In this document: in pieces, positions 4,777 through 64,000 of the stretch | Position numbering within the stretch: the stretch's first letter is position 1 | How the letters are laid out: every line of letters starts with the position of its first letter | Source: an uncultured Anaerolineales bacterium | Lineage (GTDB): Bacteria > Chloroflexota > Anaerolineae > B4-G1 | Length of the DNA: 64,000 nucleotides | Assembly (NCBI GenBank): GCA_964575455.1 | Contig: CAZNRX010000016.1 | Location: 445 to 64,444 of the forward strand | Direction: 5' to 3' | Made by a program: the position numbers and the translations under genes | Notes under the pieces: model-generated | What the model saw: the letters and a program-made list of their open reading frames with translations, nothing else | The model's database searches: none | What the model was told of the DNA's origin: nothing

Positions 4777-5000
4777 CTGTCTCCCACCTGAGAGATTCCT
4801 CCCGAGTGATATTTGGGATTGCCCCTTCGGTATCCTTAGCGCGGCCCCAGGTGCTCTTGGAGCTGCTCTCCGGATTTTCCAGAGTGCCGAGGTAAGGGGT
4901 CCGGTGACCTGAGAGTTTCGTCGCCGTAGTCAGCCGGCCACGGCGAGTTGCCCCTTCGGTGTCCGCTTGGAGGCGGCCTCTCCCCCATACCCCAGGGCGG
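4777..5000 (-). promoter_or_regulatory. tandem-aptamer glycine riboswitch
   Basis: Minus-strand RNA contains GGAGAG...CACCGAAGGGGCAA...AAACUCUCAGGUCACCGGAC (aptamer 1) and CUGGA..GGAGAG...UACCGAAGGGGCAA...AAUCUCUCAGGUGGGAGACAGAG (aptamer 2). These match the conserved GGAGAG / CGCCGAAGGAGCAA / CUCUCAGGCAAAAGGACAGAG blocks of the gcvT riboswitch. Confidence 0.7.
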
Positions 5001-14239: not shown

Positions 14240-14752
14240 ATGCCCAGAAGAATCTACCTGCTCATTGTTTTCGTGCTGGCGACAACTGTTCTGGCTCAAG
14301 GATGTGGGCCGGCTGCGACCGAGGTCAGCACTGCCGCACCTGTTGCCACGGAACGTCCGGAGCCAACGGCTACGGCGGAAGCGACGGAGGCCACCGAGGT
14401 TCCCGCGACGGAGGAGCCCACGGCCGAGCCGACGGAGCCGGAGCCCTCGCCGACGGAGCCGGAGCCTTCACCGATGGTCACGCCGGAGCCGGAGGCACCG
14501 ACGGCCACAGCGGAGCCGGAGGAGCCGGCCGCGACGCCCGAACCGACCGCTGAGCCCGCTGAGCCGGAGGGCCAGGTGCTGCTTGAGGCGCGCTGCACGG
14601 CGTGCCACGGTCTGGATCGGGTGGAGAGTGCGCAGAAGTCCCGCGAGGAGTGGGTGGCCACGGTGGATCGCATGGTGGACTACGGGGCGCAGCTTTCTGA
14701 GTCCGAACAAGGGGTCCTTCTAGACTATCTGGTGGATACGTACGGTCCGTAG
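14240..14752 (+). CDS. lipoprotein with Pro/Glu/Thr/Ala-rich low-complexity linker and C-terminal CxxCH (c-type heme-binding) module
   Basis: Signal peptide with lipobox LAQGC, then a long PEPT/ATAE-rich spacer, then a C-terminal 60 aa with CTACHG and a downstream Met (DRMVDYG). Confidence 0.65.
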   Translation: MPRRIYLLIVFVLATTVLAQGCGPAATEVSTAAPVATERPEPTATAEATEATEVPATEEPTAEPTEPEPSPTEPEPSPMVTPEPEAPTATAEPEEPAATPEPTAEPAEPEGQVLLEARCTACHGLDRVESAQKSREEWVATVDRMVDYGAQLSESEQGVLLDYLVDTYGP

Positions 14753-20773: not shown

Positions 20774-22246
20774 TCATCCTTTCCCACCACCCGGTTCCGG
20801 CGCCGCGATGAATGGAAGAGAGGTATGAGCGGCGAGGAGACCGAAGACGGTGGCGGCATACCAGCTGTTGGTCGGGAAGAGGGCAACGTCGAAGAGGCCG
20901 GCGATCAGCATAGCGATCCACGGTGCCCAGGCCGGGGACTGCGGGCGGCTGAGGCCGCTCAGAACCAGCCAGATCCAGAGGGCGGCCCCTGGCAGGCCGA
21001 GCTCGGCCGCGGTCAGGAGGGGGACGTTGTGCACGGTGCGTGAATCGGTCTCGATGGCGCGCACAGCGACCAGGTAGTTGTTCACCCCCACGCCTCGCCA
21101 GGGATGCTGCCTGATCAGCCGCAGGGCCAGGTTCGCATCCACCTGTCGGTCTGAGACCGAGCGCGCCTCGATGGGCGTCTCCAGGTGCAGGAAGCGGCTG
21201 GCGACCAGGTCGTGGTAGAGCAATAGGAAGAGCAAGGCGAGCACGACGGGCACGACAAACTGGACGGGTTGTCTCAGCGTCTCGACGAGGCCGCGGAGGG
21301 ATCTCTTCCCCTCGGGGCCGCATGGGGTGCGACGGTGAAGGGACCTGTGCAGCAACCACGCCAACAGGCCAACGCCGAAGGCGAGCCAGGCGCTGCGCGA
21401 GAACGTGACCAGTAGGCCAAGGAGCCCAGCGCTGGCGACCAGTGCAAACCAGGCCTGTGCCCAACCGCGCGCTTTGGCGATGTCGCTTCGCTTACTCTTC
21501 TTATGGCGGATGTCGCTTTGCTTACCCTCTTTATGGCGGATGTCGCTTCGCTTCCCTTTCATCGTGGCGTCGTCGATTATGATAAGCAGCGAGATCGAAA
21601 GCACCGCGCCGAGGAGATTGGGGTGACCGCTGAGGCCATAGGCACGAAGCCAACGTTGGCCGCGGGCGAAGAGCACACAAACGCCAGAGCGCTCCGGGTC
21701 CAGCGTGGGCTCCCCCAGCGCGCTGAGCCCCAGGTCTCCCTGGAACGCAAACTGGCCCAGTGCGACGCTGCTCTGGATTGCGATCACAAGTGTAAGCGGA
21801 ATCGTCAGGCTTGGGGCCTCGTTGACGATGAACAGATAGACCCACCAGAGCAGGCCGAGCGAGAGGATGACGACCACGGTGCGCTGGTTGAGGGCAGGTT
21901 CGAGGCTGAGCAGCATCAGCAAGGTGAGCCCGGCCAGGGGAAGCGTGATGCCGGGCCTGCCCCAGCGCCAGGGTCGCGAGGGACGTTCGCAGACGCGAGC
22001 GACGAACCATGCGATGAGGGCCAGCCCGGGCACCAGGACAAGCGGCCCCAAGGCCACCGGTGCCTCATCGATGCCGGGGACCTGGACGATGGGCAGCCAG
22101 TTGAGTGGGCCCCTGGTGGGCGAGGGAAAGATGAGGGTCAGTGTGATGAAGGTGAGGAAGAGACCCTGCTTGGCTCTGTTGAAAAGCGCCGTGCGGCGGG
22201 CCTGGTTGGGCGGCCTGGGGGACGCGTCAGCCTGGATTGTTCTCAC
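20774..22246 (-). CDS. O-antigen ligase/polymerase family (Wzy_C) membrane protein
   Basis: Multi-TM protein with the Wzy_C signature region (RSAWLAFGVGLLAWLL). Contains an in-frame 30 bp x3 tandem repeat. Confidence 0.75.
   Translation of the reverse strand: MRTIQADASPRPPNQARRTALFNRAKQGLFLTFITLTLIFPSPTRGPLNWLPIVQVPGIDEAPVALGPLVLVPGLALIAWFVARVCERPSRPWRWGRPGITLPLAGLTLLMLLSLEPALNQRTVVVILSLGLLWWVYLFIVNEAPSLTIPLTLVIAIQSSVALGQFAFQGDLGLSALGEPTLDPERSGVCVLFARGQRWLRAYGLSGHPNLLGAVLSISLLIIIDDATMKGKRSDIRHKEGKQSDIRHKKSKRSDIAKARGWAQAWFALVASAGLLGLLVTFSRSAWLAFGVGLLAWLLHRSLHRRTPCGPEGKRSLRGLVETLRQPVQFVVPVVLALLFLLLYHDLVASRFLHLETPIEARSVSDRQVDANLALRLIRQHPWRGVGVNNYLVAVRAIETDSRTVHNVPLLTAAELGLPGAALWIWLVLSGLSRPQSPAWAPWIAMLIAGLFDVALFPTNSWYAATVFGLLAAHTSLPFIAAPEPGGGKG
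21478..21568. repeat. 30 bp imperfect tandem repeat x3 inside the ligase CDS
   Basis: GATGTCGCTTCGCTTACTCTTCTTATGGCG / GATGTCGCTTTGCTTACCCTCTTTATGGCG / GATGTCGCTTCGCTTCCCTTTCATCGTGGCG, encoding K/R-rich decapeptides (KRSDIRHKEG...). Confidence 0.8.
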
Positions 22247-26669: not shown

Positions 26670-26809
26670 GTCGCTCGCTCGTTGCGGGGTGACGTCCGGT
26701 TTCGACCTAGAGGCGGGGGTGACACACCCTCTTTGAGCTTGTTTGCGGGTGGCTCAGGCCGTTTGAGCCTAGATGCGGGGGTGGGTTGGGCACCGGGTCG
26801 ACACAGTCA

Positions 26810-26857
26810 CCAACGAAACTCCAACTGTTTCCAACCTGATCCAACCCGAGCCCCAAC
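26810..26857 (+). promoter_or_regulatory. helically phased CCAAC direct repeats
   Basis: CCAAC at about 26810, 26821, 26831, 26841 and 26853, spaced 10-11 bp, between the response regulator and the MgtC-like gene. Confidence 0.35.
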
Positions 26858-30590: not shown

Positions 30591-33500
30591 TCCGCGCGTG
30601 GAGGATCGGGCACGTCAACTGGCCGAGAGGCATAAAGCCACGCGCGGTTCTGGCGTCTCGACCCGAGGGCCCGGGCTAGACCGCCTGTCGACCGATTTGC
30701 TGAAGCGTCTCCCCGTGATCGAGCGGGTGCTCCGCGAGGCCTACACGGGCTTTGCCAGCGATGCCTTTGGCAGCGCGGTGCCCGAGGAACGGGGTACCCT
30801 GTCGGGCGTGGCCGAATGGGTCCTGGACAACTACTATGTGATCCAGAAGGCGATCCGGCAGATTGGGGAGAACATGCCGCGGGGCTACTACCGCCGGCTC
30901 CCCAAGCTCGTCGGCACAGACGACCGCTCACCCTTGAGCGGTTACCCTCGGGTGTACGCTGTGGCCCGAGAGATCATCCGCATCGCAGAAGGCCAGGTCG
31001 ACGTCGACCGCGTGCGGCGCTTCATCCGCGCATATCAGGAGGTCCGGCCCCTGACCATGGGGGAAATCTGGGCCCTGCCGACGATGCTGCGCCTGAGCCT
31101 GGTGGAGCTTCTGGCGTGGACCGTTGGTGGCGCAGCAGGGCTTGAGATCCCCATCAATGAGGAGCCGTTTCCCGGGCCAGTGGAGCTCGAGAACAAAGGC
31201 GACGAGGCCATCGTGGCCGGCGTCATCAACAGCTTGCGCGCCATTGACGACCACGAATGGGATGACTTCTTCGAGGCCACGAGCCTGGTGGAGGAGACGC
31301 TTCGCCTGGACCCTGCAGACGTCTACCCAGAGATGGACTTCGACAGCCGCGATCGCTACCGCGGCGTGGTCGAGAAGCTGGCGCGGGAGACGGATCAGTC
31401 CGAGCAGGAGGTGGCGCGAGCGGCGCTCCGCCTAGCCCGGAGACGGGCCGCCCGTCCTCGGGCCGCCCGCCCTCGGGCCGAGCACGTCGGTTTCTATCTG
31501 GTGGGCCGCGGGCGGGCGCAGCTTGAGGAGGCTGTCGGCTTTCGACCGGGGCTGTTGGAGCAGGCGCGCCGCTGGGTGTTCGGGCACCCCACACCGGTCT
31601 ATCTCGGCAGCATCGCCGTCATAACCGGGCTCGTCTTGGCCGGGGTACTGCTGTACGCGCACGGTGCTGCCGGGGGTGGGCAGCCCGCGGTCGGGCTGGG
31701 GGCTCTGGCGGCCGTCGCGCTGCTGACCCTTCTGCCGGCGTCGATTGTGGGCGTCAACCTCACAAACATGGTCATCACGCGCGCGGTGCCGCCGCGGGTG
31801 TTGCCCAAGCTCGATTTCAGCGACGGGATACCTGCTGACTATCGTACGATGGTCGTGATCCCGGCCCTGTTGAGCAGCGACGACGAGGTGGACTTCCTGC
31901 TGCGGCAGCTGGAGCTGCACTACCAGGGGAACGCTGACCCTCAGCTGGGGTTTGCGCTTCTGAGTGACTTCGCTGACGCGCCACAGAAACAGATGCCAGA
32001 GGATGAGCACCTGCTGCAGCGGGCCAGGGAGGGCATTCGACGCCTCAATCGCACGTACGGCAAGGGGGGGCGTGCTGAGGGTGCTGAGGGGCCGTTTCCA
32101 CCGCGAGAGACTCTGGAATCCCAAGGAGTCGTGCTGGATGGGGTGGGAGCGGAAGCGCGGCAAGCTGGTCGAGTTCAACCGCCTGCTGCGAGGCGAGCAT
32201 GAGACGTCGTACGTGGTGAAGATGGGCAATCTCGATTTCCTCCCCGAGGTGACGTACGTGATCACCCTGGATGCGGACACGGTCTTCCCACTGGACAGCG
32301 GGCATCGGTTGGTTGGCACCATGGCCCATCCACTGAATCAGGCTGAGTTCGACGCAGATGGAGCGGGCGGCCCGACAACGGGCGGCCCGACAACGGGCGG
32401 CCCGTATTCGGGCTATACGGTCCTCCAGCCGCGGACGGAGGTCAAGCCCACGGCAGTCACCCGCACCTGGTTCAGCAGGATCTTCGCGGGCGATGCAGGT
32501 CTGGATCTCTACACGCGCGCTGTCTCCGACGTCTATCAGGACTTCTTCGGTGAGGGGATCTACATCGGTAAGGGCATCTACGATGTGGATGCCTTTGAGC
32601 GCAGCCTGCGTGGGCGGGTGCCTGAGAACGCCCTGCTGAGTCACGACCTCTTCGAGGGCATCCACGGTCGGGCTGCCCTGGTGACGGACGTGGTGCTCTT
32701 TGAGGACTACCCCCCGACCTATCTGAGCTATGCACACCGAAAGCACCGTTGGGTGCGGGGTGACTGGCAGATTCTGCCCTGGCTCTTCCCGAGGGTGCCT
32801 CACGCCGGTGAAGGGACGATTCCCAACCCGCTCTCGGTTCTCGATCGCTGGAAGAGCTTCGACAACCTGCGGCGCAGCTTGCGCGCGCCCGCGCTCTTCG
32901 CCTTGCTCGTGGCCGGCTGGGTCTGCCTGCCTGGGTCGCCGCTGGTCTGGACGCTGATCGCGGTGGTGGCGTCTGGGCTGCCACTGGTCACGGGTGCGGT
33001 CACGGAGATGGCACGCCGTCTGGGAGGCGGACAGTCAGCTCCGGCCTCGTCGACGTTCTGGGAGCGGATGGGAAAGGAGGCTGCGCGCTGGCTGCTGAGC
33101 ATCGTATTCTTGCCCTACGAGTCGATTCTGATGGGCGACGCCGTTGTGACCACGCTGGTGCGTCTAACGATCAGCCGCAAGCGACTGCTGCAGTGGACGA
33201 CGGCCGCTCACACTGTGCGTCTCTTTGGGCGTGAGTCGAAGATAAAGTTGCTCTGGCAGGAGATGAGCGGTGGGCCGGTCCTGGGGCTCATGGTCGCGGT
33301 CGCGCTGGCCTTGTTCCGGCCCATGGTACTGCCCCTCGCTGCGCCGTTCCTTCTGTGCTGGCTGGTCTCCCCTCTGGTGGCGGCCCGCATCAGCCAGCCG
33401 GTGGAGGAAGAGGAGGCGTCGCTTTCCGGCGCTGAGCGTCGACGGCTGCGGCTTCTGGCCCGCCGCACGTGGCTGTATTTTGAGCGCTTCGTCGGCCCGG

Positions 33501-36500
33501 ACGATCATTGGCTGCCCCCCGATCATTTCCAGGAGGAGCCGCAGGGGAGGGTGGCGCACCGCACGTCCCCAACCAACATCGGACTGATGCTCCTCTCCTC
33601 TCTCGCTGCCTATGATCTGGGCTACATCGGGCTGATGGAGCTGTCGCTCCGCACGAGCGATGCCTTTGACAGCATGGATGAGCTTGAGAGGTACCGGGGC
33701 CACCTGCTGAACTGGTACGACACCAGAACCCTGGATTCGCTGGCCCCGCGCTACGTCTCCACGGTGGACAGCGGGAACCTGGCGGCGTGTCTGATTGCGC
33801 TTGGGCAGGGGCTGGAGCAGCTGGAGCAGGAGCGCATCCTGCGCTGGCAGCGTTGGCGAGGGCTGTGCGATGCGTTGGATGTGTTGAAGCAGATCATCAG
33901 GGCCGCGGAGCAGGGGGTGGACGCTGCTGCTCAGGAGGAGATTGAGCGTGCAGCCGCGGATCTGAGTCAATGGATCGACCGGATGCGCGAGAGGGTGCTC
34001 GCTGTGAGGGAGGAGCAGGAGCGTTGGATCCCTCTGCTCGCGGAGCTTGAAGAGGAGGTCGCCGAAGGCCTCAACCGACGGCTCCAGGCGCTGCTCGATG
34101 CAGGCTCAGGGATCCTGGGCACTGCGACCCTGCGCGATCTCCGGCTCTGGTCGGAGAGGCTTCACCTGCATCTGCGTGACTTGCGCAAGGGTATAGAGAG
34201 AGCTCTGCCCTGGGTCTTCCTGCTGAACGATCCCCCGCAGGTTCTCGTCAGTGAGCGATCCGAGGAGCTGACCCCAGCTATCGCTGAGGCGTGGCGAGGG
34301 ATTGAGGAGGCGCTGCCGCTCGATCCGCGCCTGGGGGAGATAAGCGCCGTCTGTCGCAGGGCTCGAGAGGAGCTGGAGGAGCTCCGGCAGCTGCTGAAGG
34401 AGGAGCTTGCGTCGCTGGACAGGGAGCAAGAGCCCGATCTCGTCGGTCAGCTGAAGGACGCCCTTGATTGGTCCGAGGAGCTGGATCAAGCCCTGGCGTC
34501 GGCCCGGATGACGGCTGGCGGCATGATGATCGGCCTTGACGATCTGATACAGCGGGCTGAGGCCTACGTTGACGACATGGCTTTCGGCTTCCTGTACGAT
34601 GATCGCCGGGACGTGTTCCACATTGGCTACCAGGTGGACAGCGAACAGCTGGATCGCAATCACTACGACCTGCTTGCTTCGGAGGCGCGCATTGCGAGCA
34701 TCGTGGCCATCAGCAAGCGGGAGGTCCCACAGGGCCACTGGCTGCACCTGAACCGTCCTCTTTCTCGCGTCGACGGGCTGCGCACGCTGCTCTCGTGGGG
34801 CGGGTCGATGTTCGAGTACCTGATGCCGGACCTGATGATGCGCAGGTATGAGGAGACGCTGCTCAACCAGGCGAACCGGGCCGCCGTGCGTCGCCAGATC
34901 GCCTATGGAGATGAGAAGGGCGTCCCCTGGGGGGTCTCCGAGTCGGGTTACTATCGTTTTGATGCGCAGCTGAACTACCAGTACCGGGGATTTGGCGTGC
35001 CCGGCCTGGGGCGGAAGCGAGGGCTGGGCGACGATCTGGTGATCGCCCCGTACGCCTCGCTGCTGGCCGTGGACGTGGCGCCGGAGGAGGTGTTGGAGAA
35101 CATCGACCTGCTGATTGAGCAGGGAATGCAGGGCCACTATGGTTTGTACGAAGCGCTGGACTACACAGCGTCGCGCCTGCCGATGGGGCAGAGGCGGGCC
35201 ATTGTGCGCTCCTACATGGCCCACCATCAAGGAATGATCATGGTGGCTCTATCTAACTACCTCAACGACCACGACATTGTGAATCGATTCCATCACGATC
35301 CCCGCATTCAGAGCGTGGAGTTCTTGCTTCAGGAACAGGTCCCCGGCCAGGCTCCGCTTGAGGAGGTGCCGGAGGAAAGCGTGGGCATCGAGCGGCTGCA
35401 GCGCGAGCGGGTGGAGCTTGAGCCCTGGTCCGTGCCAACCGACGCTCCCATGCCTCAGGTTCACTTCCTGTCCAACGGTCGCTACGGCTCGCTGATCACA
35501 GAGGCTGGCGCTGGCTACAGCACCTACTCTCCCAGGCGATCGGGCGCGGGGGAGACGGTGGCCCTGACCCGTTGGCGGGCGGACACCACGCGCGACTGCT
35601 GGGGGACGTGGATCTACGTGCAGGACCTGCACATGCAGGATCTGCACATGCAGGATCTGCACATGCAGGATCTGCACATGCAGGATCTGGAGGGCGGTCG
35701 CCCCGGTGAATCAGGCCTGTGGTCCGTGACCGAGCAGCCGACCCATGCGCGTGCGGACGACCAGCTGGCCCGGTTCTATCCCCATCGGGCCGAGTTCCGG
35801 CGGCGGTATGGCGATATCACCCTGCACACGGAGATCGTCGTGGCGCCGGAGGAGGACGTCGAGATTCGGCGCGTCAGCCTGATGAATCACGGCGATGAGG
35901 CTCGGCGTCTGCGGGTCAGCAGCTACGCGGAGGTGGCGCTCGCGGCTCAAGACAGAGACCGGCGACATCCGGCGTTCAACAAGATGTTCATCGAGAGCGA
36001 GCGTCTGTCGGAGGTCAACGCGCTTCTGTTCAAGCGGCGTCCTCGCTCAGCGAGCGACTCGCGTGGATCCGCCATAAGAAGAGTAAGCGAAGCGGCAGCT
36101 GGAGAGCCGTTGTGCATGGCTCATATGCTCGTCACGGCGCCCGGCATGGAGGACACAGGCGCCCACGAGAGCGACCGGGCGCAGTTCATCGGGCGCGGGC
36201 GCACGGCGCGCGAGCCAGCGGCCTTTCGCCGGAGGTACGACGGGCCGCCTGAGGCCGAGTGGTTGTCCGGAACAACGGGAGCTACCCTGGATCCGGTCAT
36301 GGCCTTGGGCCAAGACGTCGAGGTAGAGCCTCACGCGACGGTCGAGCTCGCCTATCTGACGCTGGCTGCGGAGTCGCGGGAGGATGCGATTGCCTTGGCT
36401 CGCCGGTATCAGTCCTGGACGCGCATCGACCGGGCGTTCGATCAGGCCCACGCGCAGAGTGAGTTGGAGCTGCGTAACCTGGATCTCGAGGTCTCTGACG

Positions 36501-44849: not shown

Positions 44850-45175
44850 GAAACCCTAGTGCTCTTTCACACAACAGACCTTGGCTTTTCCCTGCTCCCA
44901 GCCCTCGTCCTCGAGGGCGGTCTGGCCCAGGACAAGGCTCGATAGCACGCGTAAGCCGCCCCGAGACGGGGCTCAGAGCGACTGAAAAGTCCAAGTTAGA
45001 CGTGTGAAATTCCACTAGTGCTCTTTCACACAACAGACCTTGGCTTTTCCCTGCTCCCAGCCCTCGTCCTCGAGGGCGGTCTGGCCCAAGACAAGGCTCG
45101 ATAGCACGCGTAAACCGCCCCGAGACGGGGCTCAGAGCAACTGAAAAGTCCAAGTTAGACGTGTGAAATGGCACT
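44850..45175. repeat. tandem duplication (2 copies, 159 bp unit, about 97% identical) of a highly structured element
   Basis: Unit CTAGTGCTCTTTCACACAACAGACC...GCCCTCGTCCTCGAGGGCG...CCCCGAGACGGGG...GTTAGACGTGTGAAAT. It has 8 bp terminal inverted repeats TTTCACAC/GTGTGAAA and two internal perfect hairpins. A third copy begins at 45174 and diverges. Confidence 0.85.
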
Positions 45176-45281
45176 AGCAAGGTGATCGCCACGGTGCGGC
45201 GAATTTCCCACGGGCGCTGTGTGGTGCGTGGCACCTCACGATGGTAAGTAGGTTAGCATGCAGAGAGAGTGGAGGGCTAAG

Positions 45282-56332: not shown

Positions 56333-59300
56333 TCAGTCGATCTGCAAAGCGATCACCTTTCGCGCCAACACGCTGATCGCCTCATTGCGTCTCTGTAGCT
56401 GGCCCTTGATCACCACAAAGGGCGAACGGAGGGCCTTCCGGCTCTCCTCATAGACTTTGGGACGGATGACGACGTTGATGAGCCCTCCCTCATCCTCCAG
56501 CGTCAGGAAGGCTACGCCCTTGGCCGTTGGAGGACGCTGGCGCGAGACGACGATGCCGCCCACCCGTACCTGGCATCCATCCTCCAATTCCGACAGCGCC
56601 TCGCTCGGCGTCGCGTGCACTGCCTTTAGCTTGTCGCTGATCAGAGCTGTGGGATGTTCCCGGGCGCTCATCCCGGTGTGTGCCATCTCGGTCCATAACC
56701 TCCCTCGCGGCGAGAGAAAGGCGAAGCGGGGCCGGCCTTCCGGCGGTGGGATGGCCAGCTCCTGGGTGACCGCCCTTGACCCGGAGCCTGCGGCTGCTTC
56801 CAGGGCCGTCTTCAACTCCCAGATCAGTTGTCGTCGTGGGACGCCCCATTCGTCGAAGGCGCCGGCCCAGATCATGCCCTCTACAGCTCTTCTTCCCAGC
56901 TTCGTGCGCCGGCAGAAGTCGGCCAGGGAGCGGAAGGGGCCGAAGCGCCGCGCCTCCACCACGCTCTGGCCGCCGACCTCCCCCAGCTCTTTGATCACCG
57001 CTAGCCCCAGCCGCAGCGCCTGGCCCTCCACAGTGGCCTGCAGCTCGGAGGCCTCCACATCTGCCGGACGGACCTCCAAGCCGCGGCGACGAGCCTCGGA
57101 GACGACCACGTGCGCTGGATAGAACCCCATGGGCTGATGGCGCAGCAGGGCGGCGAAGAAGGCCAAGGGGTGGTAGCGCCGCAGCCAAGCGGACTGGTAC
57201 GTCAGCACGGCGAAGGCCGCTGCGTGGCTCTTGGGGAACGAGTAGCTGCCGAAGGCCTGGAGCTGCTCGAAGATCCGCTCCGCTGCTCTCGCCTCGACGC
57301 CTCGCTCTGCCGCGCCGTCGAGGAAGCGTCTCCTGAAGCGCGCGATCCTCCGTCCGGCGCGCTTGTGCGAAAGGGCGCGCCGCAGGAGCTCTGCCTCACC
57401 CGGGGTGAACCCGGCCAGATCTCGCGCCACCTTCAAAACCTGCTCCTGGAAGATGATCACGCCCAGCGTCTCCCTGAGCGCGTCCTCCAGGAGGGGGTGT
57501 GGATAGCTGATCGGCTCGCGGCCCTCGCGGCGGCGCAGGTAGGGGCGGACCATCTGGGCCTGAAGCGGCCCGGGACGGATGAGGGAGATTTGGATGACCA
57601 GGTCGTCGAACGAACGCGGCTGAAAGCGCGGGATCAGGTTGGCCTGGGCTCTCGATTCCACCTGGAAGACGCCGATCGTCTTGCCTTGGCAGAGCATGTC
57701 GTAGACCTCGGGGTCATCTTGTGAGAGCGACGTCAGGTCCGGGCGCTGCTCGGTCTGGCCTTCGACGATGGTCACGGCGTCCTCGATGAGAGAGAGCATC
57801 CTCAGCCCCAACAGGTCGATCTTGACCAATCCCGCGCCCTCCAGGCCATCCTTGTCCCATTGGGTGACCACGGGGGTAGAGGACACCCCTAGGCCCTCCA
57901 TGGTCGCCGGCTCCAGCGGCACCAGCTCGCACAGCGGTGGGCCGGAGAGCACCACACCCCCGTTGTGGATCCCCAGATGGCGTGGGATGCCCTCCAGTTG
58001 GGGCACCAGCCGCAGGAGGTGTTGGAACAGCCTGGGTGACTGTGTCGACCCGGGTGACTGTGTCGACCCGGGTGAGTTGGCGCCCTTGCACGCCGCCCCG
58101 CCTGTCAGTTGCTCGGCATCGAACGCCTGCAGCATCCCGCGTGACTCTCTCACGCTTTTCGCGTCTCGGACGTCGAGCGACTTAGCCAGTCGCTCCACCA
58201 GCGCCGGCGGGAACCCGAGCACGCGCGCCACGTCCCGCACCGCCGATCGGGCGCGGAAGGTGACGAAGGTGCAGGCCATAGCTGCGTGCTCCCGGCCGTA
58301 GCACTGGTAGACGTATTGGATCACCTCCTCGCGCCGGTCGGCGGCGATGTCGATGTCGATGTCGGGCGGTGAGCCGCGCTCCTGTGAGAGGAAGCGCTCA
58401 AAGACCAGATCGCACGCCACCGGATCGATAGGGCTGATATCCAGAAGGTAGGCCACTAGCGAGTTGGCCGCGCTTCCCCGGCCCTGGTAGCGAATGCCCG
58501 CCTGTTGGGCGAAGCGCACGATATCCCAGACGACGAGGAAGTAGTTGGACAGCCCCATCTGTTGGATCACCGAGAGCTCCTGCTCCAGCAGCGCGGTCGG
58601 CGGATTGACAGGGTAGCGGCGATGAAGCGCCCGCTGGCACAGTTGCCGCAGTCTGTGGTGAGCGTCGCTGGGTGCCCCCCCTCTTATCCCCCCCAGAGGG
58701 GGGGAAGCGGGCTTTGGGGTTCCCCTCCCAGAGGGGGAGCGGGCCTTGGGGACCTCCCCCAGAGAGGGGGAAGCGGGCTTTGGGGTTCCCCCCCAGAGGG
58801 GGAGCGGGCTTTGGGGTTCCCCCCCAGAGGGGGGGAAGCTAGGGCCTTGGGGACCTCCCCCAGAGTGGGGGAGGCTAGGGCCTCGGGGCCCCTCCCAGAG
58901 GAGAGAGGTTGGGGCCTTGAAGAGTCCCCCCGGAGGGGAGGAGGTTGGGGTCTCGGGGAGTGTCTGCATCCCGGCGGGCAGGTAGTCGCACGCTGGTGCA
59001 CAGCGTTGGGCGATGCGCAGGGCGTTCTCCAGGGCGATAGGCACGTCGCTGAAGAGCCTCGCCATCTCCCCCGGCGAGCGCAGGATATACTCGTCGTTGG
59101 AGCGCAGCAGATCGTCGGCGTCCTCCAGGACGGTCTGATGGTGGATGCAGCGCAGGACGTCGTGAACCTCCCGCTGGTGTGGATGGAGGTAGTGGACGTT
59201 TCCGGTCGCCACCACGTCGAGGCCGGCCCGATCGGCCAGCGTCGTCAGCTGCGCCAGAAGCCGGTTATCGTCCCTCACGTAGTGGCGCTGCAGCTCGATG

Positions 59301-59788
59301 AAGAAGCGATGAGGGCCGAAGACGCGGGCGTAGCCCTGAGCCGCGCTCAACGCTTGCTCACGTTTCTTGGCCATCAACAAGCGCGGTATCTCGCCCCGGC
59401 GACAGCCCGAGAGCGCAATCAAGCCCTCGGCGTGGGCGGCGAGGTCACGCTTGTCAAGCCGAGCTACTCCCTTGTCCTGATGCTGACGCGCCAGCGTGAT
59501 CAGGCGGCACAGGTTGGCGTATCCCTCCGCGGTCTCTATCAGAAGGATGAGGTGGGAACCTTCTTCGTGTGCCGGGTCGCGGAGCGTCATCTCGCTGCCC
59601 AGGATGGGCTTGACCCCTGCCTCCCGCGCAGCCTTCACGAAGCGCACCGCGCCGTAGAGCGCGTCGTGGTCGGTCAGGGCCAACGCAGGGATCCCTAGAT
59701 CGGCCGCTCGGACCGCCAGCGCCTCCGGCGAGGGGACGCCGTCGAGCAAGCTATGGCTAGAGTGGGTGTGAAGCTCGGCGTATTTCAT
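56333..59788 (-). CDS. dnaE2: error-prone DNA polymerase III alpha-like subunit (DnaE2/ImuC) carrying an in-frame Pro/Gly-rich repeat insertion
   Basis: PHP N-terminus (YAELHTHSSHSLLDG), polymerase core and a C-terminal OB fold. Preceded by imuB and a LexA box. Start taken at MKYAELH; the tracked ORF extends to 59860 across direct repeats. Confidence 0.8.
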   Translation of the reverse strand: MKYAELHTHSSHSLLDGVPSPEALAVRAADLGIPALALTDHDALYGAVRFVKAAREAGVKPILGSEMTLRDPAHEEGSHLILLIETAEGYANLCRLITLARQHQDKGVARLDKRDLAAHAEGLIALSGCRRGEIPRLLMAKKREQALSAAQGYARVFGPHRFFIELQRHYVRDDNRLLAQLTTLADRAGLDVVATGNVHYLHPHQREVHDVLRCIHHQTVLEDADDLLRSNDEYILRSPGEMARLFSDVPIALENALRIAQRCAPACDYLPAGMQTLPETPTSSPPGGLFKAPTSLLWEGPRGPSLPHSGGGPQGPSFPPSGGEPQSPLPLWGGTPKPASPSLGEVPKARSPSGRGTPKPASPPLGGIRGGAPSDAHHRLRQLCQRALHRRYPVNPPTALLEQELSVIQQMGLSNYFLVVWDIVRFAQQAGIRYQGRGSAANSLVAYLLDISPIDPVACDLVFERFLSQERGSPPDIDIDIAADRREEVIQYVYQCYGREHAAMACTFVTFRARSAVRDVARVLGFPPALVERLAKSLDVRDAKSVRESRGMLQAFDAEQLTGGAACKGANSPGSTQSPGSTQSPRLFQHLLRLVPQLEGIPRHLGIHNGGVVLSGPPLCELVPLEPATMEGLGVSSTPVVTQWDKDGLEGAGLVKIDLLGLRMLSLIEDAVTIVEGQTEQRPDLTSLSQDDPEVYDMLCQGKTIGVFQVESRAQANLIPRFQPRSFDDLVIQISLIRPGPLQAQMVRPYLRRREGREPISYPHPLLEDALRETLGVIIFQEQVLKVARDLAGFTPGEAELLRRALSHKRAGRRIARFRRRFLDGAAERGVEARAAERIFEQLQAFGSYSFPKSHAAAFAVLTYQSAWLRRYHPLAFFAALLRHQPMGFYPAHVVVSEARRRGLEVRPADVEASELQATVEGQALRLGLAVIKELGEVGGQSVVEARRFGPFRSLADFCRRTKLGRRAVEGMIWAGAFDEWGVPRRQLIWELKTALEAAAGSGSRAVTQELAIPPPEGRPRFAFLSPRGRLWTEMAHTGMSAREHPTALISDKLKAVHATPSEALSELEDGCQVRVGGIVVSRQRPPTAKGVAFLTLEDEGGLINVVIRPKVYEESRKALRSPFVVIKGQLQRRNEAISVLARKVIALQID
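58681..58975. repeat. about 8 tandem copies of a 33-36 bp GC-palindromic unit (CCCCCCCAGAGGGGGGG-AAGCGGGCTTTGGGGTT) inside the dnaE2 coding frame
   Basis: Seen directly in the sequence. It encodes the peptide ..GGLFKAPTSLLWEGPRGPSLPHSGGGPQGPSFPPSGGEPQSPLPLWGGTPKPASPSLGEVPKARSPSGRGTPKPASPPLGG.. without stop codons. Confidence 0.85.
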
Positions 59789-59860
59789 GAACGCGAAAGG
59801 CACGAAAGATGAACACGAAAGGCACGGAATACGAACACGAAGGGCGCGAAAGGCGGGCAC
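59789..59860. repeat. three direct repeats of about 22 bp (ATGAACRCGAAAGGCACGRAAK) in the imuB-dnaE2 junction
   Basis: Seen in the sequence immediately upstream of the proposed dnaE2 start. Confidence 0.7.
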
Positions 59861-59887: not shown

Positions 59888-61369
59888 TTAGATGTGGCGA
59901 CGTTCTATGTACCATCGGTCGGCCTGCACGTCGCGAAAGATGACCTTCATCCGCCCAGGTGACTGCGTCGACGGGCGGGATCCCCGCCACGCCTCAATTT
60001 CCAGCCGGAAGTAGTCGCGTTCGATGGGGCGGGGTCCCCACCAGCGCCGCCGTTCACGCCAGTGTTCGTAGATGGACTGCACCTCCCAGATGCGCTCGCG
60101 CCACAGGATGCCTCTGGGCAGGCCCTCGTGGTCAGTCGTGACTTGTGTGGGGGATGGTGAGGGGGCGACGACTAGGGAGGCGACGAGAATCACAAGCTCT
60201 CCAAAGCGGTCCCGCAAGCGCCGCAGCGTCTCGCGCAGCTTGTGACCAACACGAAGAGCACCACGAAAGGTGGCGGGGGAGGCAAGGGGTGAGGCCGCCG
60301 CCGCTGGGTCGGCGGAGCCAAAGAAGGCAAGTTGGGTGGCGCCTCGGTGGAAGGGCCGCAGGGGGAAGAGGGTCAAGGTGAGTCCGGTCACTGGCCCGCC
60401 GATGGTCAAACCACCGAGCATGCGAGCCCCCAGGCGAGAGATTTGGTCGGCGCTGGAGGAGGGGGGCTTGACCGGCTTACCGGCTGTGTGCTTGTCACTA
60501 TGTAGATCCTCGATCTCCAACAGCAGACCTTCAGCCTGATAGCCACGACGGTCGATTTCCTTGGCCAACTCGTCCGCCATGTGTTCCATATGGGCCAGCA
60601 GGGGCCATCGATCGCTCACCGGGTCGAGGAAGGTATGCGACTGTGTGAGCCGGAGGGGAGGGGCGTCGGCATGCACAGGTCGAGCGTCCATTCCACAGGC
60701 CAGATCATAGGCGGTGCCGGCGGAGCTGCCGAACTGGCGGAGCACGGCCGGGCGGGGCAGCTTGGCAAGGGCGCCTAGGGTGCGCACCCCCAACAGGCGC
60801 AGACGGCATTCCATCTCCGGATCAAGGGGGAGGACTGAGATATCCAATGGCGAGAGAAAGGCCCGTTCCTCACCGGATGACACGACGCTCATCTCCCCGG
60901 GCCTGGCAGCTCGCGCGGCTTGCCGGGCCACGAACTTGCCGCTGGCCGCGCCGATCTGAACGTCCAATGCCGCAGTGTTGAAGGTCTCTTTGATGAGTCG
61001 CCGCGTCGCCTCACTGGCGTCGTCGAACCGTCGCTTGAGGCCCGAGATGTCGGCGTACACGAGCCCGAGCTCGGCGGCCTCCACGGTCGGGGTGAAGCGC
61101 CTGGCACTGTCGATCAGGGCGTGGTGAACGGCGCTATACGCCTCCTCATCAGCGGGCAGGAAGCGGGCCTCGGGACACAGCGTCTCCGCCTGGGTAAGGC
61201 GCATGCCCGGCTCCACCCCGGCGCTCGTGGCCTGGGGACAGCAGTCGAGCACCGCCCCCTCATCCCAGCGCCGCCCGCCGACGATCAAAGGCGCATTGGC
61301 CAGGGTCGGGTCACGTCGCCACTCCACGCGCACCGGAAGTTGCGGGATCAATAGACAAGCTACCCACAT
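59888..61369 (-). CDS. imuB: ImuB-like Y-family polymerase homolog of the mutagenesis cassette
   Basis: N-terminus MWVACLLIPQLPV.. typical of ImuB. About 490 aa. Sits immediately upstream of dnaE2 on the same strand, behind an SOS box. Confidence 0.65.
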   Translation of the reverse strand: MWVACLLIPQLPVRVEWRRDPTLANAPLIVGGRRWDEGAVLDCCPQATSAGVEPGMRLTQAETLCPEARFLPADEEAYSAVHHALIDSARRFTPTVEAAELGLVYADISGLKRRFDDASEATRRLIKETFNTAALDVQIGAASGKFVARQAARAARPGEMSVVSSGEERAFLSPLDISVLPLDPEMECRLRLLGVRTLGALAKLPRPAVLRQFGSSAGTAYDLACGMDARPVHADAPPLRLTQSHTFLDPVSDRWPLLAHMEHMADELAKEIDRRGYQAEGLLLEIEDLHSDKHTAGKPVKPPSSSADQISRLGARMLGGLTIGGPVTGLTLTLFPLRPFHRGATQLAFFGSADPAAAASPLASPATFRGALRVGHKLRETLRRLRDRFGELVILVASLVVAPSPSPTQVTTDHEGLPRGILWRERIWEVQSIYEHWRERRRWWGPRPIERDYFRLEIEAWRGSRPSTQSPGRMKVIFRDVQADRWYIERRHI

Positions 61370-62209: not shown

Positions 62210-63022
62210 CTATTCGCGTCTATCGGCCCGCGGAGCGCGCCGCTGCCAGAGCCCGACGCCCCAGCGCACGATGGCCAGCTGGGAGAGGCCGATCCAGATC
62301 AGGAGCAGGGTAGCTCCCCAGGCGACTGTCTGAATCGGGCGGCCCACGTTTTGGCGGGCGGTTCCCACGCGCGTCTGGAGCTGCTCCAGATTGCTGCGGT
62401 GACTGCTGAGCGCCGCGTCGGCGTCGACCACGTTCTGGCGGATGCCCAACATATGGTCTCCCATGAGCGCGATGCCGCTTTGGACGTCGTCGAGGCTGGC
62501 GCTGGTCTCAAGCAGTCCGGCTCCCATAGCGCGCAAGCTCTCGGGCACCGGCGCCAGGCCCGCCCCGGCCTCCGCCACGGCTTGATCGAGCGGGATATTC
62601 GGATCGTAGCCTCCAACGCCGAGCTGCTGAAGGCTGCGGAGCAGCTGATCGATCACCGCAGCTGTCTCCTCCAGCGCATCCAGGGCCAGCAGCGAGGCCT
62701 CAATGCTCTGTGGCAGATCATCTTCGGCCAGTCCAGCTATCTCGTCGACCGTCACCCGGGTGCTGCTCAACGTTTGACTCACGTCGAGCGTTGTGGTGTA
62801 GAGGCCATTGATGGCGATGGCGGCGCCGTCCAGCGTGGTAGACGCTACGTCCAGCGAGCGGTCGACATCCTTCAGTGTGTCTGAGAGCAGGAGCAGGCTA
62901 TCGTCGGCCGCGACTGCGACATCCTCGGCCGCGCGCCAGACGTAGATCACGCCCAGGGCGCTGAGCGCGATCCCCAGGGCGCCAAGTAGGATGAGCAACG
63001 TGCCTAGGATACGTCGAGTCAT
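62210..63022 (-). CDS. membrane-anchored hypothetical protein (N- and C-terminal TM helices, coiled-coil ectodomain)
   Basis: 270 aa with TM segments at both ends and a central Ala/Leu-rich helical region. Confidence 0.55.
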   Translation of the reverse strand: MTRRILGTLLILLGALGIALSALGVIYVWRAAEDVAVAADDSLLLLSDTLKDVDRSLDVASTTLDGAAIAINGLYTTTLDVSQTLSSTRVTVDEIAGLAEDDLPQSIEASLLALDALEETAAVIDQLLRSLQQLGVGGYDPNIPLDQAVAEAGAGLAPVPESLRAMGAGLLETSASLDDVQSGIALMGDHMLGIRQNVVDADAALSSHRSNLEQLQTRVGTARQNVGRPIQTVAWGATLLLIWIGLSQLAIVRWGVGLWQRRAPRADRRE

Positions 63023-63990
63023 GAGGGCACCTCCTCTTGTTCGGTCACGCGCTTGCGTGCTTCCTGGTAGAGCGCGGTCAGGTCGTTCTGGACCCGCTGC
63101 ACGGTCATAGCTCGACGGGCGTCGCCGTCGAACGAGATCTTCCCCGACATGGCCGCCCGAGCGGGGTTGATTCGGCCGGTGAACATCGCATCCATCACAT
63201 CGGCGTCCATCTCCAGCCGGACCTCCGCCGGAGCTGGTGGCTGGCCCAGACCGCCAATGACCGTGCCGTCCTGGAAGCCCAGGTAGACCTCCAGGCTTGG
63301 ATCTTGCAGCACGTAGTGCGTGGTCAACTGGCGTCCCTTGGCAAACTCTTTTAAGGCCGGGTCGTCTGCGGCGAGCTCGACGAAGGCGTCTAAGACGCGC
63401 TTCATCTCTCCCTCGCTCAGTGGCTGGAGTGGGGTTGAGACGTCTTGTTGCCGCTCTTCACGCCCAGTCGAGCTGCGACCGCTTCCCAGACCACGCAGTG
63501 CGGCCAAGACCCGCCTGACAAGCCCCTGACGCGTCGCGTCCCCCGCTCTTGTCCCCACCGGGGTGGGGGAGGCCCCCCCTCTCGTCCCCCCCAGAGGGGG
63601 GGAGGCCCCCGCTCTTGTCCCCACCGGGGTGGGGGAGGCCCCCCCTCTCGTCCCCCCCAGAGGGGGGGAGGTTGGATGCGGTCCCCCGACATCGTGGAGG
63701 GCCTCACGAAGCTCCGTCTCCAACTCGTAGAGCGGAATGGAGCGAGCTGACTCCTTGAGCATCTCCAAGGTGGGGTACCCCTCCTCCTGCTCGGCCGTCC
63801 ACTCCTCTGCGAACTGTCCGCTCCGGATCTCATCCAGGCCATCCCGCATTCTATCGCGCAGTCCAGGGAGCTGGAAGCGCATGCCGCGCGACATGGAGCC
63901 ATACTGGCTGGTGCGGCTGTGAAGCTGGCTCTGTTCCACCATGCCCAACTCGGCAATCTTCCCCAGCGTGTAGGAAAACTCACCGGACAT
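63019..63990 (-). CDS. partial CDS (N-terminus beyond the window): ketol-acid reductoisomerase-like C-terminal domain fused through a Pro/Gly-rich repeat insertion to an SCP2 sterol-carrier domain
   Basis: ..YMSGEFSYTLGKIAELGMVEQSQLHSRTSQYGSMSRGMR..DEIRSGQFAEEW.. resembles the KARI C-terminal knotted domain. The C-terminal 110 aa (..MSGKISFDGDARRAM..) resembles SCP2. Confidence 0.55.
   Translation of the reverse strand: MSGEFSYTLGKIAELGMVEQSQLHSRTSQYGSMSRGMRFQLPGLRDRMRDGLDEIRSGQFAEEWTAEQEEGYPTLEMLKESARSIPLYELETELREALHDVGGPHPTSPPLGGTRGGASPTPVGTRAGASPPLGGTRGGASPTPVGTRAGDATRQGLVRRVLAALRGLGSGRSSTGREERQQDVSTPLQPLSEGEMKRVLDAFVELAADDPALKEFAKGRQLTTHYVLQDPSLEVYLGFQDGTVIGGLGQPPAPAEVRLEMDADVMDAMFTGRINPARAAMSGKISFDGDARRAMTVQRVQNDLTALYQEARKRVTEQEEVPS
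63540..63670. repeat. two tandem 67 bp GC-palindromic units (..CCCCACCGGGGTGGGGG..CCCCCCCAGAGGGGGGG..) in frame within the KARI-SCP2 gene
   Basis: Seen directly. Shares the C7-AGA-G7 core with the dnaE2 insertion. Encodes ..PPLGGTRGGASPTPVGTRAGASPPLGGTRGGASPTPVGTRAG... Confidence 0.85.
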
Positions 63991-64000
63991 GTACAGCTCC

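Follow-up and report, generated by a model that had tools for sequence, protein, structure and literature searches.

Several kinds of short palindromic DNA are known to lie inside bacterial protein-coding genes. Rickettsia palindromic elements (RPEs), with which no transposase is known to be associated, occur in frame in conserved Rickettsia genes (Ogata et al., 2000; summary in PMC10969869). Intragenic repetitive extragenic palindromes (REPs) have been described in several species (Di Nocera et al., 2013; PMC3733652): these are 20-40 bp elements located wholly within open reading frames (ORFs) as single copies, dimers or clusters, the clusters encoding 43-82 aa, and many of them sit in replication and repair genes, where they are over-represented, DnaE2 being named among the hosts. 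Inverted REP doublets, known as REPINs, are mobilised by REP-associated tyrosine transposases (RAYTs) (PMC3116915, PMC3337134). [quoted passage not shown] Here we analyse an in-frame tandem array of a small C7/G7 palindrome in dnaE2, the gene for an error-prone DNA polymerase, located on a 64-kb stretch of contig CAZNRX010000016.1 (hereafter, the window). The host belongs to Anaerolineae by best protein matches, the best matches of DnaE2 being proteins from Anaerolineae metagenome-assembled genomes (MAGs).

The array occupies positions 58673..58950 on the minus strand, approximately aa 301-398 of the listed dnaE2 ORF, and is located between the PHP domain and the palm, just past PHP. We put the probability at about 0.7 that this segment is no piece of the polymerase but repeat DNA, either selfish or neutral, which the gene tolerates, and that it goes back to one insertion followed by local amplification.

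Hand dissection of the array yields eight tandem hairpin units, u1 to u8, with lengths of 36, 26, 36, 36, 31, 34, 32 and 47 nt (range 26-47, mostly 31-36), all built on a C5-7/AGA/G5-7 hairpin and all in one orientation. The first-pass annotation of this DNA had also counted eight hairpin units in an in-frame Pro/Gly loop without stop codons between PHP and the polymerase core, which Pfam, NCBIfam and the translation confirm; our values differ from its unit length (33-36 bp), span (58681-58975) and loop size (about 90 aa), and what has to be corrected is its assumption that every unit carries the perfect C7-AGA-G7 hairpin. The latter (C7-TCT-G7 on the coding strand) is found in two units only: in u4, where the core lies at 58819..58835 (entered on the plus strand), and in u8, at 58688-58704. 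Unit u8 (58673..58719, minus strand) is the best preserved module, reads C7-TCT-G7-ATAAGA-G7 in the coding direction and matches with its 3' part the single unit present in orthologs. The remaining units have C5-7/G5-7 or broken runs, u1 and u2 being heavily decayed. A spacer, CCCCAA(A/G)GCCC(G/TA)GC(T), is common to u3-u8 and lies outside the consensus of the dispersed family described below. The encoded peptide, LPETPTSSPPGG...SPPLGGIRGGAP, is Pro/Gly/Ser-rich and comprises about 100 residues.

Pairwise identity of the units is 36-94% overall and 57-94% within u3-u8, reaching 94% between u5 and u7. Tandem Repeats Finder (TRF) reports, for 58687-58870, a period of 32 (5.5 copies, 80% match) as well as a period of 65 (2.8 copies, 86% match). 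The 65-nt higher-order period together with the u5/u7 identity suggests, on sequence grounds, that two-unit blocks were duplicated, as in the second locus considered below. The core CCCCCCAGAGGGGGG, with up to two mismatches allowed, occurs nine times in the window, always within 58689-58940 or 63587-63667 (the second locus); the expectation is 0.68 and none of 100 shuffles reached nine. Hairpin-paired C7/G7 runs in the window are likewise all confined to these two loci.

dnaE2 itself (coding sequence 56333..59788, minus strand; ORF list, NCBIfam, Pfam) looks functional as far as its sequence can tell, with the full domain set, an above-cut-off NCBIfam score and the palm motifs kept. The listed ORF extends to GTG 59860, but the likely start is ATG 59788 (MKYAELHTHS...), corresponding to M25, from which the AlphaFold2 model is numbered. 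The NCBIfam model NF004225 'error-prone DNA polymerase' gives 1034.8 bits against a cut-off of 939, and the DnaE equivalog models stay below their own cut-offs. In Pfam terms, PHP spans aa 29-193 and DNA_pol3_alpha aa 403-685, with finger, HHH_6 and OB domains present as well. PDFDVD and KFDFLGL, palm motifs of the E. coli Pol III alpha subunit, are matched in the alignment by PDIDID and KIDLLGL. In the alignment to E. coli alpha, query residues 2-283 correspond to 6-285 and the match restarts at query 400 with E. coli 325; both the NCBIfam and the PDB alignments break exactly at the array. There is no sign of altered function for DnaE2.

To follow the history of the segment, the window protein was aligned with its 60 closest DnaE2 orthologs (61 sequences; orthologs are labelled P00xx, and fetched loci, 8-kb snippets, Lxxx). 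Nothing comparable is present at the position of the array in 58 of the 60. This bears out the earlier view that the segment is an insertion unrelated to DnaE sequence, with one refinement: the two closest orthologs carry a single unit at the same codons. The sequence there is PTSHPLGGRRGGAP in P0001 (91% identical; its contig, L001, is syntenic) and PTSPPLGGTRGEA in P0002 (80% identical, L002). At the DNA level both correspond to one unit, ACC TCC C(A/C)C CCT CTG GGG GGG A...GA GG. G.G, which reads CCCACCC TCT G7 AGAAGA G7 in L001 and C7 TCT G7 ACACGAGGAGAGG in L002. In the window this ancestral unit is split, its 5' part being found in u1 and its 3' part (G7-ATAAGA-G7) in u8, with about 79 extra codons between them; P0001 DnaE2 is shorter than the window protein by 79 residues. 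When 241 million metagenome records were scanned for exact copies of the array spacer GCGGGCTTTGGGGTTCCCC, a single, unrelated match came up. Since the two closest orthologs have one unit at the same codons and the spacer is private to the array, we infer one old insertion followed by local tandem amplification, and not eight separate colonisation events.

The single spacer match lies in L120:930-1010 (WNFL01175382.1), where two tandem CGGGGAACCCCAA(A/T)GCC(C/T)GC copies are located beside a tRNA gene. This repeat has 19 nt in common with the dnaE2 array spacer, a likeness which may be due to chance or to a distant relationship.

More remote orthologs also carry traces of the element. P0018-21 have APLAGTRAQEARGA, which looks like a decayed unit judging by its sequence. 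Members of another dnaE2 clade (P0034/38/40/46/47) have SSPPLGGKEGGGL about 25 codons further downstream, encoded by C7-TTCAT/TTCCT-C7-ACT-G7-AAAGA-G7; going by these sequences, dnaE2 acquired it there independently.

The second locus of the window, noticed already in the first-pass annotation as a related element, lies in a gene encoding a KARI_C + SCP2 fusion (63019..64000, minus strand, 5' end beyond the window; Pfam). The in-frame element at 63540..63671 (minus strand) consists of four 33-nt units arranged as two 100% identical copies of a 66-nt block (TRF, codon layout). The block is exactly 22 codons long, encodes SPPLGGTRGGASPTPVGTRAGA twice over the element and is placed in the inter-domain linker. 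The full-length ortholog in L001 (521 aa, KARI_N+KARI_C+SCP2, 80% identical over the shared part) has at this site a single C7-TCC-G7-ACGAGA-G7 without the 66-nt duplication. In L140 (L140:1001-2584), from the relative with the 80%-identical DnaE2, the site reads C7-TCCCAT-CCCCTCC-AGA-G7; the window module is C7-TCT-G7-ACGAGA-G7, and in L140 the outer C7/G7 arms seem to enclose its inner segment in inverted form. Either this segment flipped in place, or an element was inserted there independently, facing the other way. The KARI-SCP2 linker is hypervariable in all orthologs, and the motif is present only in the same two relatives as for dnaE2, the other linkers being unrelated. Since the two relatives of the window lineage have the motif at both sites, both insertions predate the split of the three genomes; since these relatives lack the expansions, both expansions are specific to the window lineage. 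A peptide search with the 54-aa KARI loop against 1.84 billion representative proteins retrieved three irrelevant low-complexity proteins, so the element is untraceable at the protein level.

It is traceable as DNA. We scanned for exact matches to the core CCCCCCCTCTGGGGGGG with one genome per species and obtained at least 116 stretches. Among the matches listed, 46 are labelled Chloroflexota (Anaerolineae and Dehalococcoidia, the latter with complete chromosomes such as OZ241375.1, OZ242281.1 and OZ247431.1), about 10 are poly-G/poly-C junk at contig ends, 23 loci have the core C7TCTG7 followed by N4-7 and G5+ (usually G7), and a further 19 loci have a linker of 14-26 nt ahead of the G run. 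The short linkers before the second G run include ATTGA, ATTAA, ACTAA, ATAGA and ACAAGA; in Dehalococcoidia the linker is often a mini-hairpin of about 20 nt instead. The Anaerolineae MAGs K_2_bin.73 and D_2_bin.38 have several copies per genome, which match one another over stretches of 70-175 nt and in both orientations; for Anaerolineae MAGs other than that of the window, the number of sampled copies is 3-6 each among the matches listed. The family consensus of about 72 nt, CCCCCCCTCTAACTCCCCCCAGAGGGGGGAGAACAGGCTTCCCCCCCTCTGGGGGGGATTGAGGGGGGG, is composed of two inverted modules, the window module aligning to its left arm, and folds with z = -4.7 relative to shuffles. This doublet form (about 72-120 nt with inverted arms) is common in related MAGs, in contrast to the window copies, which are direct tandems of one module. 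In viral contigs there were 15 core matches, nearly all of them plain terminator-type hairpins, giving no phage link.

Outside Chloroflexota the family was also found in Prochloron and in a termite-gut spirochaete (Spirochaetaceae MAG). Altogether, seven protein families have the element flanked by or splitting their Pfam domains: a molybdenum hydroxylase (Ald_Xan_dh_C/MoCoBD), a HypE-like protein (AIRS/AIRS_C), ATP synthase alpha (ATP-synt_ab), Prochloron RpoC2 (RNA polymerase Rpb1 domain 5), a GMC oxidoreductase, CoA-transferase III and, in the Spirochaetaceae MAG, bacterial topoisomerase I. Seventeen of 34 Chloroflexota modules lie deep inside ORFs, i.e., with at least 100 open codons on either side, in either orientation and in different frames. 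As far as these layouts indicate, in-frame life inside genes is typical of the C7/G7 family. In-frame tandem arrays were also found in L041 (period 42, 3.5 copies) and L110 (period 45, 3.7 copies).

Two further groups of core matches come from unrelated MAGs with five to seven C7TCTG7 matches and an own flanking consensus each. In Treponema sp. Md513_bin18 (L030, L014, L027, L064, L065, L069, L111) the core is part of a 42-nt tandem, CCCTC7TCTG7CAG7TCACGAGAAAAG, and in the uncultured bacterium binchicken_co150_225 (L050, L054, L061, L070, L099) of CCCCTC7TCTG7AGGTCGGGTAGGGGGGTGCAGC. Each of the two appears to be a high-copy family of its own that uses the same hairpin.

We propose the following course of events. 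In an Anaerolineae ancestor, one C7/G7 palindromic module of about 30-40 nt, C7-TCT-G7-N6-G7 in the coding direction, would have inserted in frame into the variable PHP-palm linker of DnaE2, adding P-T-S-P-P-L-G-G-T/I-R-G-G-A to the protein, and another module would have landed in the inter-domain linker of KARI-SCP2. This step is deduced from presence and absence among orthologs; the next one is read directly off the array anatomy. In the window lineage, the unit made of spacer and hairpin would have been multiplied at its site in dnaE2 to give eight copies and the two-unit block of 66 nt would have been duplicated very recently in the KARI gene, most likely by hairpin-promoted replication slippage or unequal recombination. 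Divergence of the units would have followed, in which small indels (one or a few bases) within the C/G runs shifted the local frame unit by unit, with only those versions surviving that kept the 775 codons downstream in frame. Finally, the array is presumably translated into a disordered surface loop of about 100 residues, rich in Pro, Gly and Ser, which the protein would tolerate, and structure prediction supports this.

The eight units could instead represent successive insertions of a mobile element beside or into its earlier copies, as in REP clusters or bacterial interspersed mosaic elements (BIMEs). REPs do cluster and attract further insertions, with clustered blocks reported in the Chloroflexi species T. 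roseum (PMC3733652), and doublets are common for the C7/G7 family in the related MAGs. However, all units have the same orientation and include a private spacer with a CCCCAA flank found nowhere else, the KARI expansion is a perfect tandem duplication of 66 nt, and no further copies were found in 110 kb of the lineage (the 64-kb window plus 46 kb from two relatives). Hence we regard repeated insertion as unlikely.

Insertion followed by local amplification also agrees with the way in which the array is read. Depending on the unit, the hairpin is translated as PPLGG (SPPLGG), PLWGG (LPLWGG) or PPSGG, i.e., in three reading frames. Since the same hairpin is read in three frames, the conserved entity is the DNA and not the peptide, and only the total length is constrained. 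The frame shifts from unit to unit mean that +/-1 indels in the C/G runs have happened; the dnaE2 gene has sixteen runs of C or of G that are 5-7 nt long. Nevertheless, the ORF remains open and in frame for 775 conserved codons beyond the array. The lack of stop codons in the array itself is a matter of composition, as three of the six frames across it are stop-free anyway. In the AlphaFold2 model (46-sequence alignment, mean predicted local distance difference test score, pLDDT, of 69), residues 283-373 have pLDDT of 25-30 and no secondary structure; the predicted loop is preceded by the final PHP helix (250-262) and followed by the first helix of the palm (375-391). The model fits a tolerated disordered surface loop at the domain junction.

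A loop in such a position might also have been selected as a functional linker, for instance as a tether or interaction site of an ImuB-DnaE2 mutasome, the DNA repeat being just the route by which it grew. The domain-junction site, the predicted disorder and the intact gene agree with this, and loops of this kind can be co-opted. We nevertheless think such selection very unlikely: with three frames in use, no peptide motif is kept along the array, the 91%-identical relative manages with 79 fewer residues, and the same DNA module is found in unrelated proteins in every frame and orientation.

The tracts could matter as nucleic acid, either as a phase-variable slippage switch or as a hairpin or G-quadruplex modulating expression. 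The sixteen C/G runs in one gene and the evident past +/-1 indels could be seen in this light, and G7-N5/6-G7 is formally able to form a three-layer G-quadruplex (G7 being GGG-G-GGG). The C7-TCT-G7 module forms a stem-loop with a DNA minimum free energy of -12 to -14 kcal/mol, which ViennaRNA prefers to the quadruplex even with G-quadruplex terms included. A scan for terminator-like and promoter-like sites was empty, and Rfam had nothing at gathering score at either locus, only sub-threshold chance matches (6C, whalefall-1, miRNAs). Runs of seven are short for efficient phase variation. We therefore hold a role of the tracts as nucleic acid to be highly improbable. Equally improbable is that assembly of low-complexity GC-rich reads produced the array, or the number of its units, as an artefact: the poly-G/poly-C junk at contig ends among the database core matches and the presence of the array as such in the window sequence only would fit an artefact, but the units differ enough (36-94% pairwise identity) to be resolved by assembly, the ORF stays open and in frame through the conserved downstream codons, and in independent assemblies each of the two genes has a single unit at the corresponding site.

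Several observations weigh against insertion of a mobile element followed by amplification in place. Only two loci and no intergenic copy are found in the window and the 46 kb of its two relatives, so the element is low-copy in this lineage and perhaps no longer active. No transposase (no search was aimed at one), target-site duplication or clean empty/filled pair is available, so mobility is derived from distribution only; the empty/filled comparison at the two dnaE2 sites gives no clear target-site duplication, the flanks being too diverged. The array as such is in no other assembly, and its copy number rests on the one assembly. The fold energies of the window copies are the same as those of dinucleotide shuffles (z from -0.25 to -1.5), since any shuffle of C/G runs also folds well. 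Lastly, translation of the loop is a prediction.

How does the C7/G7 element compare with the described ones? One likeness is to RPEs, which are also short palindromes residing in frame in unrelated, conserved, functional genes and adding a tolerated peptide. This likeness was tested: dnaE2, KARI-SCP2 and the seven other protein families hold the element in frame in intact genes. As with RPEs, the insert in DnaE2 is on a predicted surface loop, in the gap between residues 285 and 325 of E. coli alpha. However, RPEs are about 100-150 bp long, AT-richer and Rickettsia-restricted, with one conserved peptide frame per family, whereas the C7/G7 module is about 30 nt, consists of C7/G7 runs, is read in any frame, occurs in Chloroflexota and other phyla and is locally amplified. 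By length, composition and host it thus falls outside RPE families 1-10, from which it is set apart by description only.

With REPs the module shares the short imperfect palindrome able to form a stem-loop. It differs from them in that the GTAG/CGTC terminal tag is absent from both the window copies and the family consensus, and in that about half of the sampled copies are intragenic, while classical REPs are mostly extragenic. The multi-copy doublet of about 72 nt in related Anaerolineae MAGs resembles REPINs, having two inverted modules of about 30 nt, a short spacer and a long hairpin; the window copies, by contrast, are direct-tandem single modules with low copy number in the lineage. Like MITEs, the elements are small non-autonomous palindromes able to lie in ORFs and contribute coding sequence, but MITEs measure 70-300 bp and have terminal inverted repeats as well as target-site duplication, and the C7/G7 unit is much shorter. 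Finally, the arrays resemble coding minisatellites (variable number tandem repeats), which arise by slippage, in their in-frame tandem amplification and in the copy number differing among close relatives (eight versus one; four versus about one or two). Unlike those, the unit is neither constant nor a multiple of three (26-47 nt), and the array grew from a seed that belongs to a dispersed family of palindromes and is not native gene sequence.

The REP/MITE-like character attributed to the repeat in the first-pass annotation is thus supported by its dispersed multi-copy palindromic relatives in other Chloroflexota genomes. The accompanying remark that it is 'not a described element class' does not hold in view of the published RPEs (PMC10969869) and intragenic GTAG/CGTC REPs, including those in DnaE2 (PMC3733652). 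We found no description of the C7/G7 family itself in the searchable literature, which is weak evidence of novelty as the coverage is incomplete. The family seems to be undescribed within the already known class of intragenic palindromic elements.

We may tentatively go further and speculate that the C7-N3-G7-N5/6-G7 module and its inverted doublet of about 72 nt constitute an undescribed cross-phylum family of mobile mini-palindromes, adapted by its make-up of C and G homopolymer runs to persistence in coding sequence and having its own mobilisation mechanism. Its range covers Anaerolineae, Dehalococcoidia, Prochloron and termite-gut spirochaetes. Most frames in either orientation may encode flexible loops of Pro, Gly, Ser, Leu and Arg, although in some linker variants, namely ATTGA, ATTAA and ACTAA, one frame carries a stop. 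Slippage by +/-1 in the runs may restore a lost frame, and the outer arms may let the core invert in place, as the comparison of L140 with the KARI site of the window illustrates.

Directly upstream of dnaE2, an imuB-like gene for a Y-family polymerase (59888..61369, minus strand; Pfam IMS, IMS_C, DUF6504) provides a mutasome cassette context. The order of the imuB-like gene and dnaE2 is the same in all orthologous loci fetched (L001, L002, L136, L137, L138, L139). In an NCBI MAG (L003:8297-10028) the imuB-like gene is called as three successive ORFs (176, 328 and 90 aa), possibly owing to frameshift errors or because it is a pseudogene there. The imuB-dnaE2 spacer of the window (59787-59852) is filled by three copies of a 22-nt repeat, within which there is a sub-period of 11 nt (coding strand: CTTTCGTGYY). 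The repeat ends right at the likely dnaE2 ATG, is unlike the GAAC-N4-GTTC LexA box and could be a regulatory or translational-coupling feature.

dnaE2 contains another in-frame repeat at 58034-58075, a perfect 18-nt tandem (2.3 copies) of GGGTGACTGTGTCGACCC, which is an imperfect palindrome and encodes NSPGSTQSPGSTQSP; the AlphaFold2 pLDDT is below 50 there. The GSTQSP motif at this site is patchy in orthologs P0006, P0015 and P0024 and weak in P0001. A copy of GGGTGACTGTGTCGACCC with one mismatch is found at 26795-26812 of the window, apparently in an intergenic position, and an exact one at L137:1746-1763. This looks like a second mini-palindrome family in protein loops.

Elsewhere in the window, 44856-45177 comprises two tandem copies (96% identity) of a 159-nt unit with an CCCCGAGACGGGG hairpin in each and without an Rfam match at gathering score, and 4887-4995 (minus strand) holds the aptamer of a glycine riboswitch (RF00504; 52 bits, the gathering score being 32). 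Near-perfect short tandems with periods of 15, 21, 27 and 30 nt, all multiples of three, are present at 35619-35689, 32364-32404, 31444-31480, 14413-14522 and 21475-21557. Together with the three expansions described, they suggest that the window lineage is prone to slippage-type duplication.

For genome analysis, tracts of this kind are a source of trouble: they break short-read assemblies (several matches are at contig ends), invite homopolymer errors in long-read MAGs, split hidden Markov model alignments and inflate protein lengths. For the biology of these bacteria, the C7/G7 family means that selfish DNA in coding genes is no longer a matter of Rickettsia and a few proteobacteria but extends to Chloroflexota as well, and apparently also into lineages of cyanobacteria and spirochaetes. 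The element is unusually small and homopolymer-based, and it sits in essential genes such as those for ATP synthase alpha, RpoC2, topoisomerase I and DnaE2. Insertion of 30 nt with subsequent local amplification would be one route by which long disordered protein loops arise.

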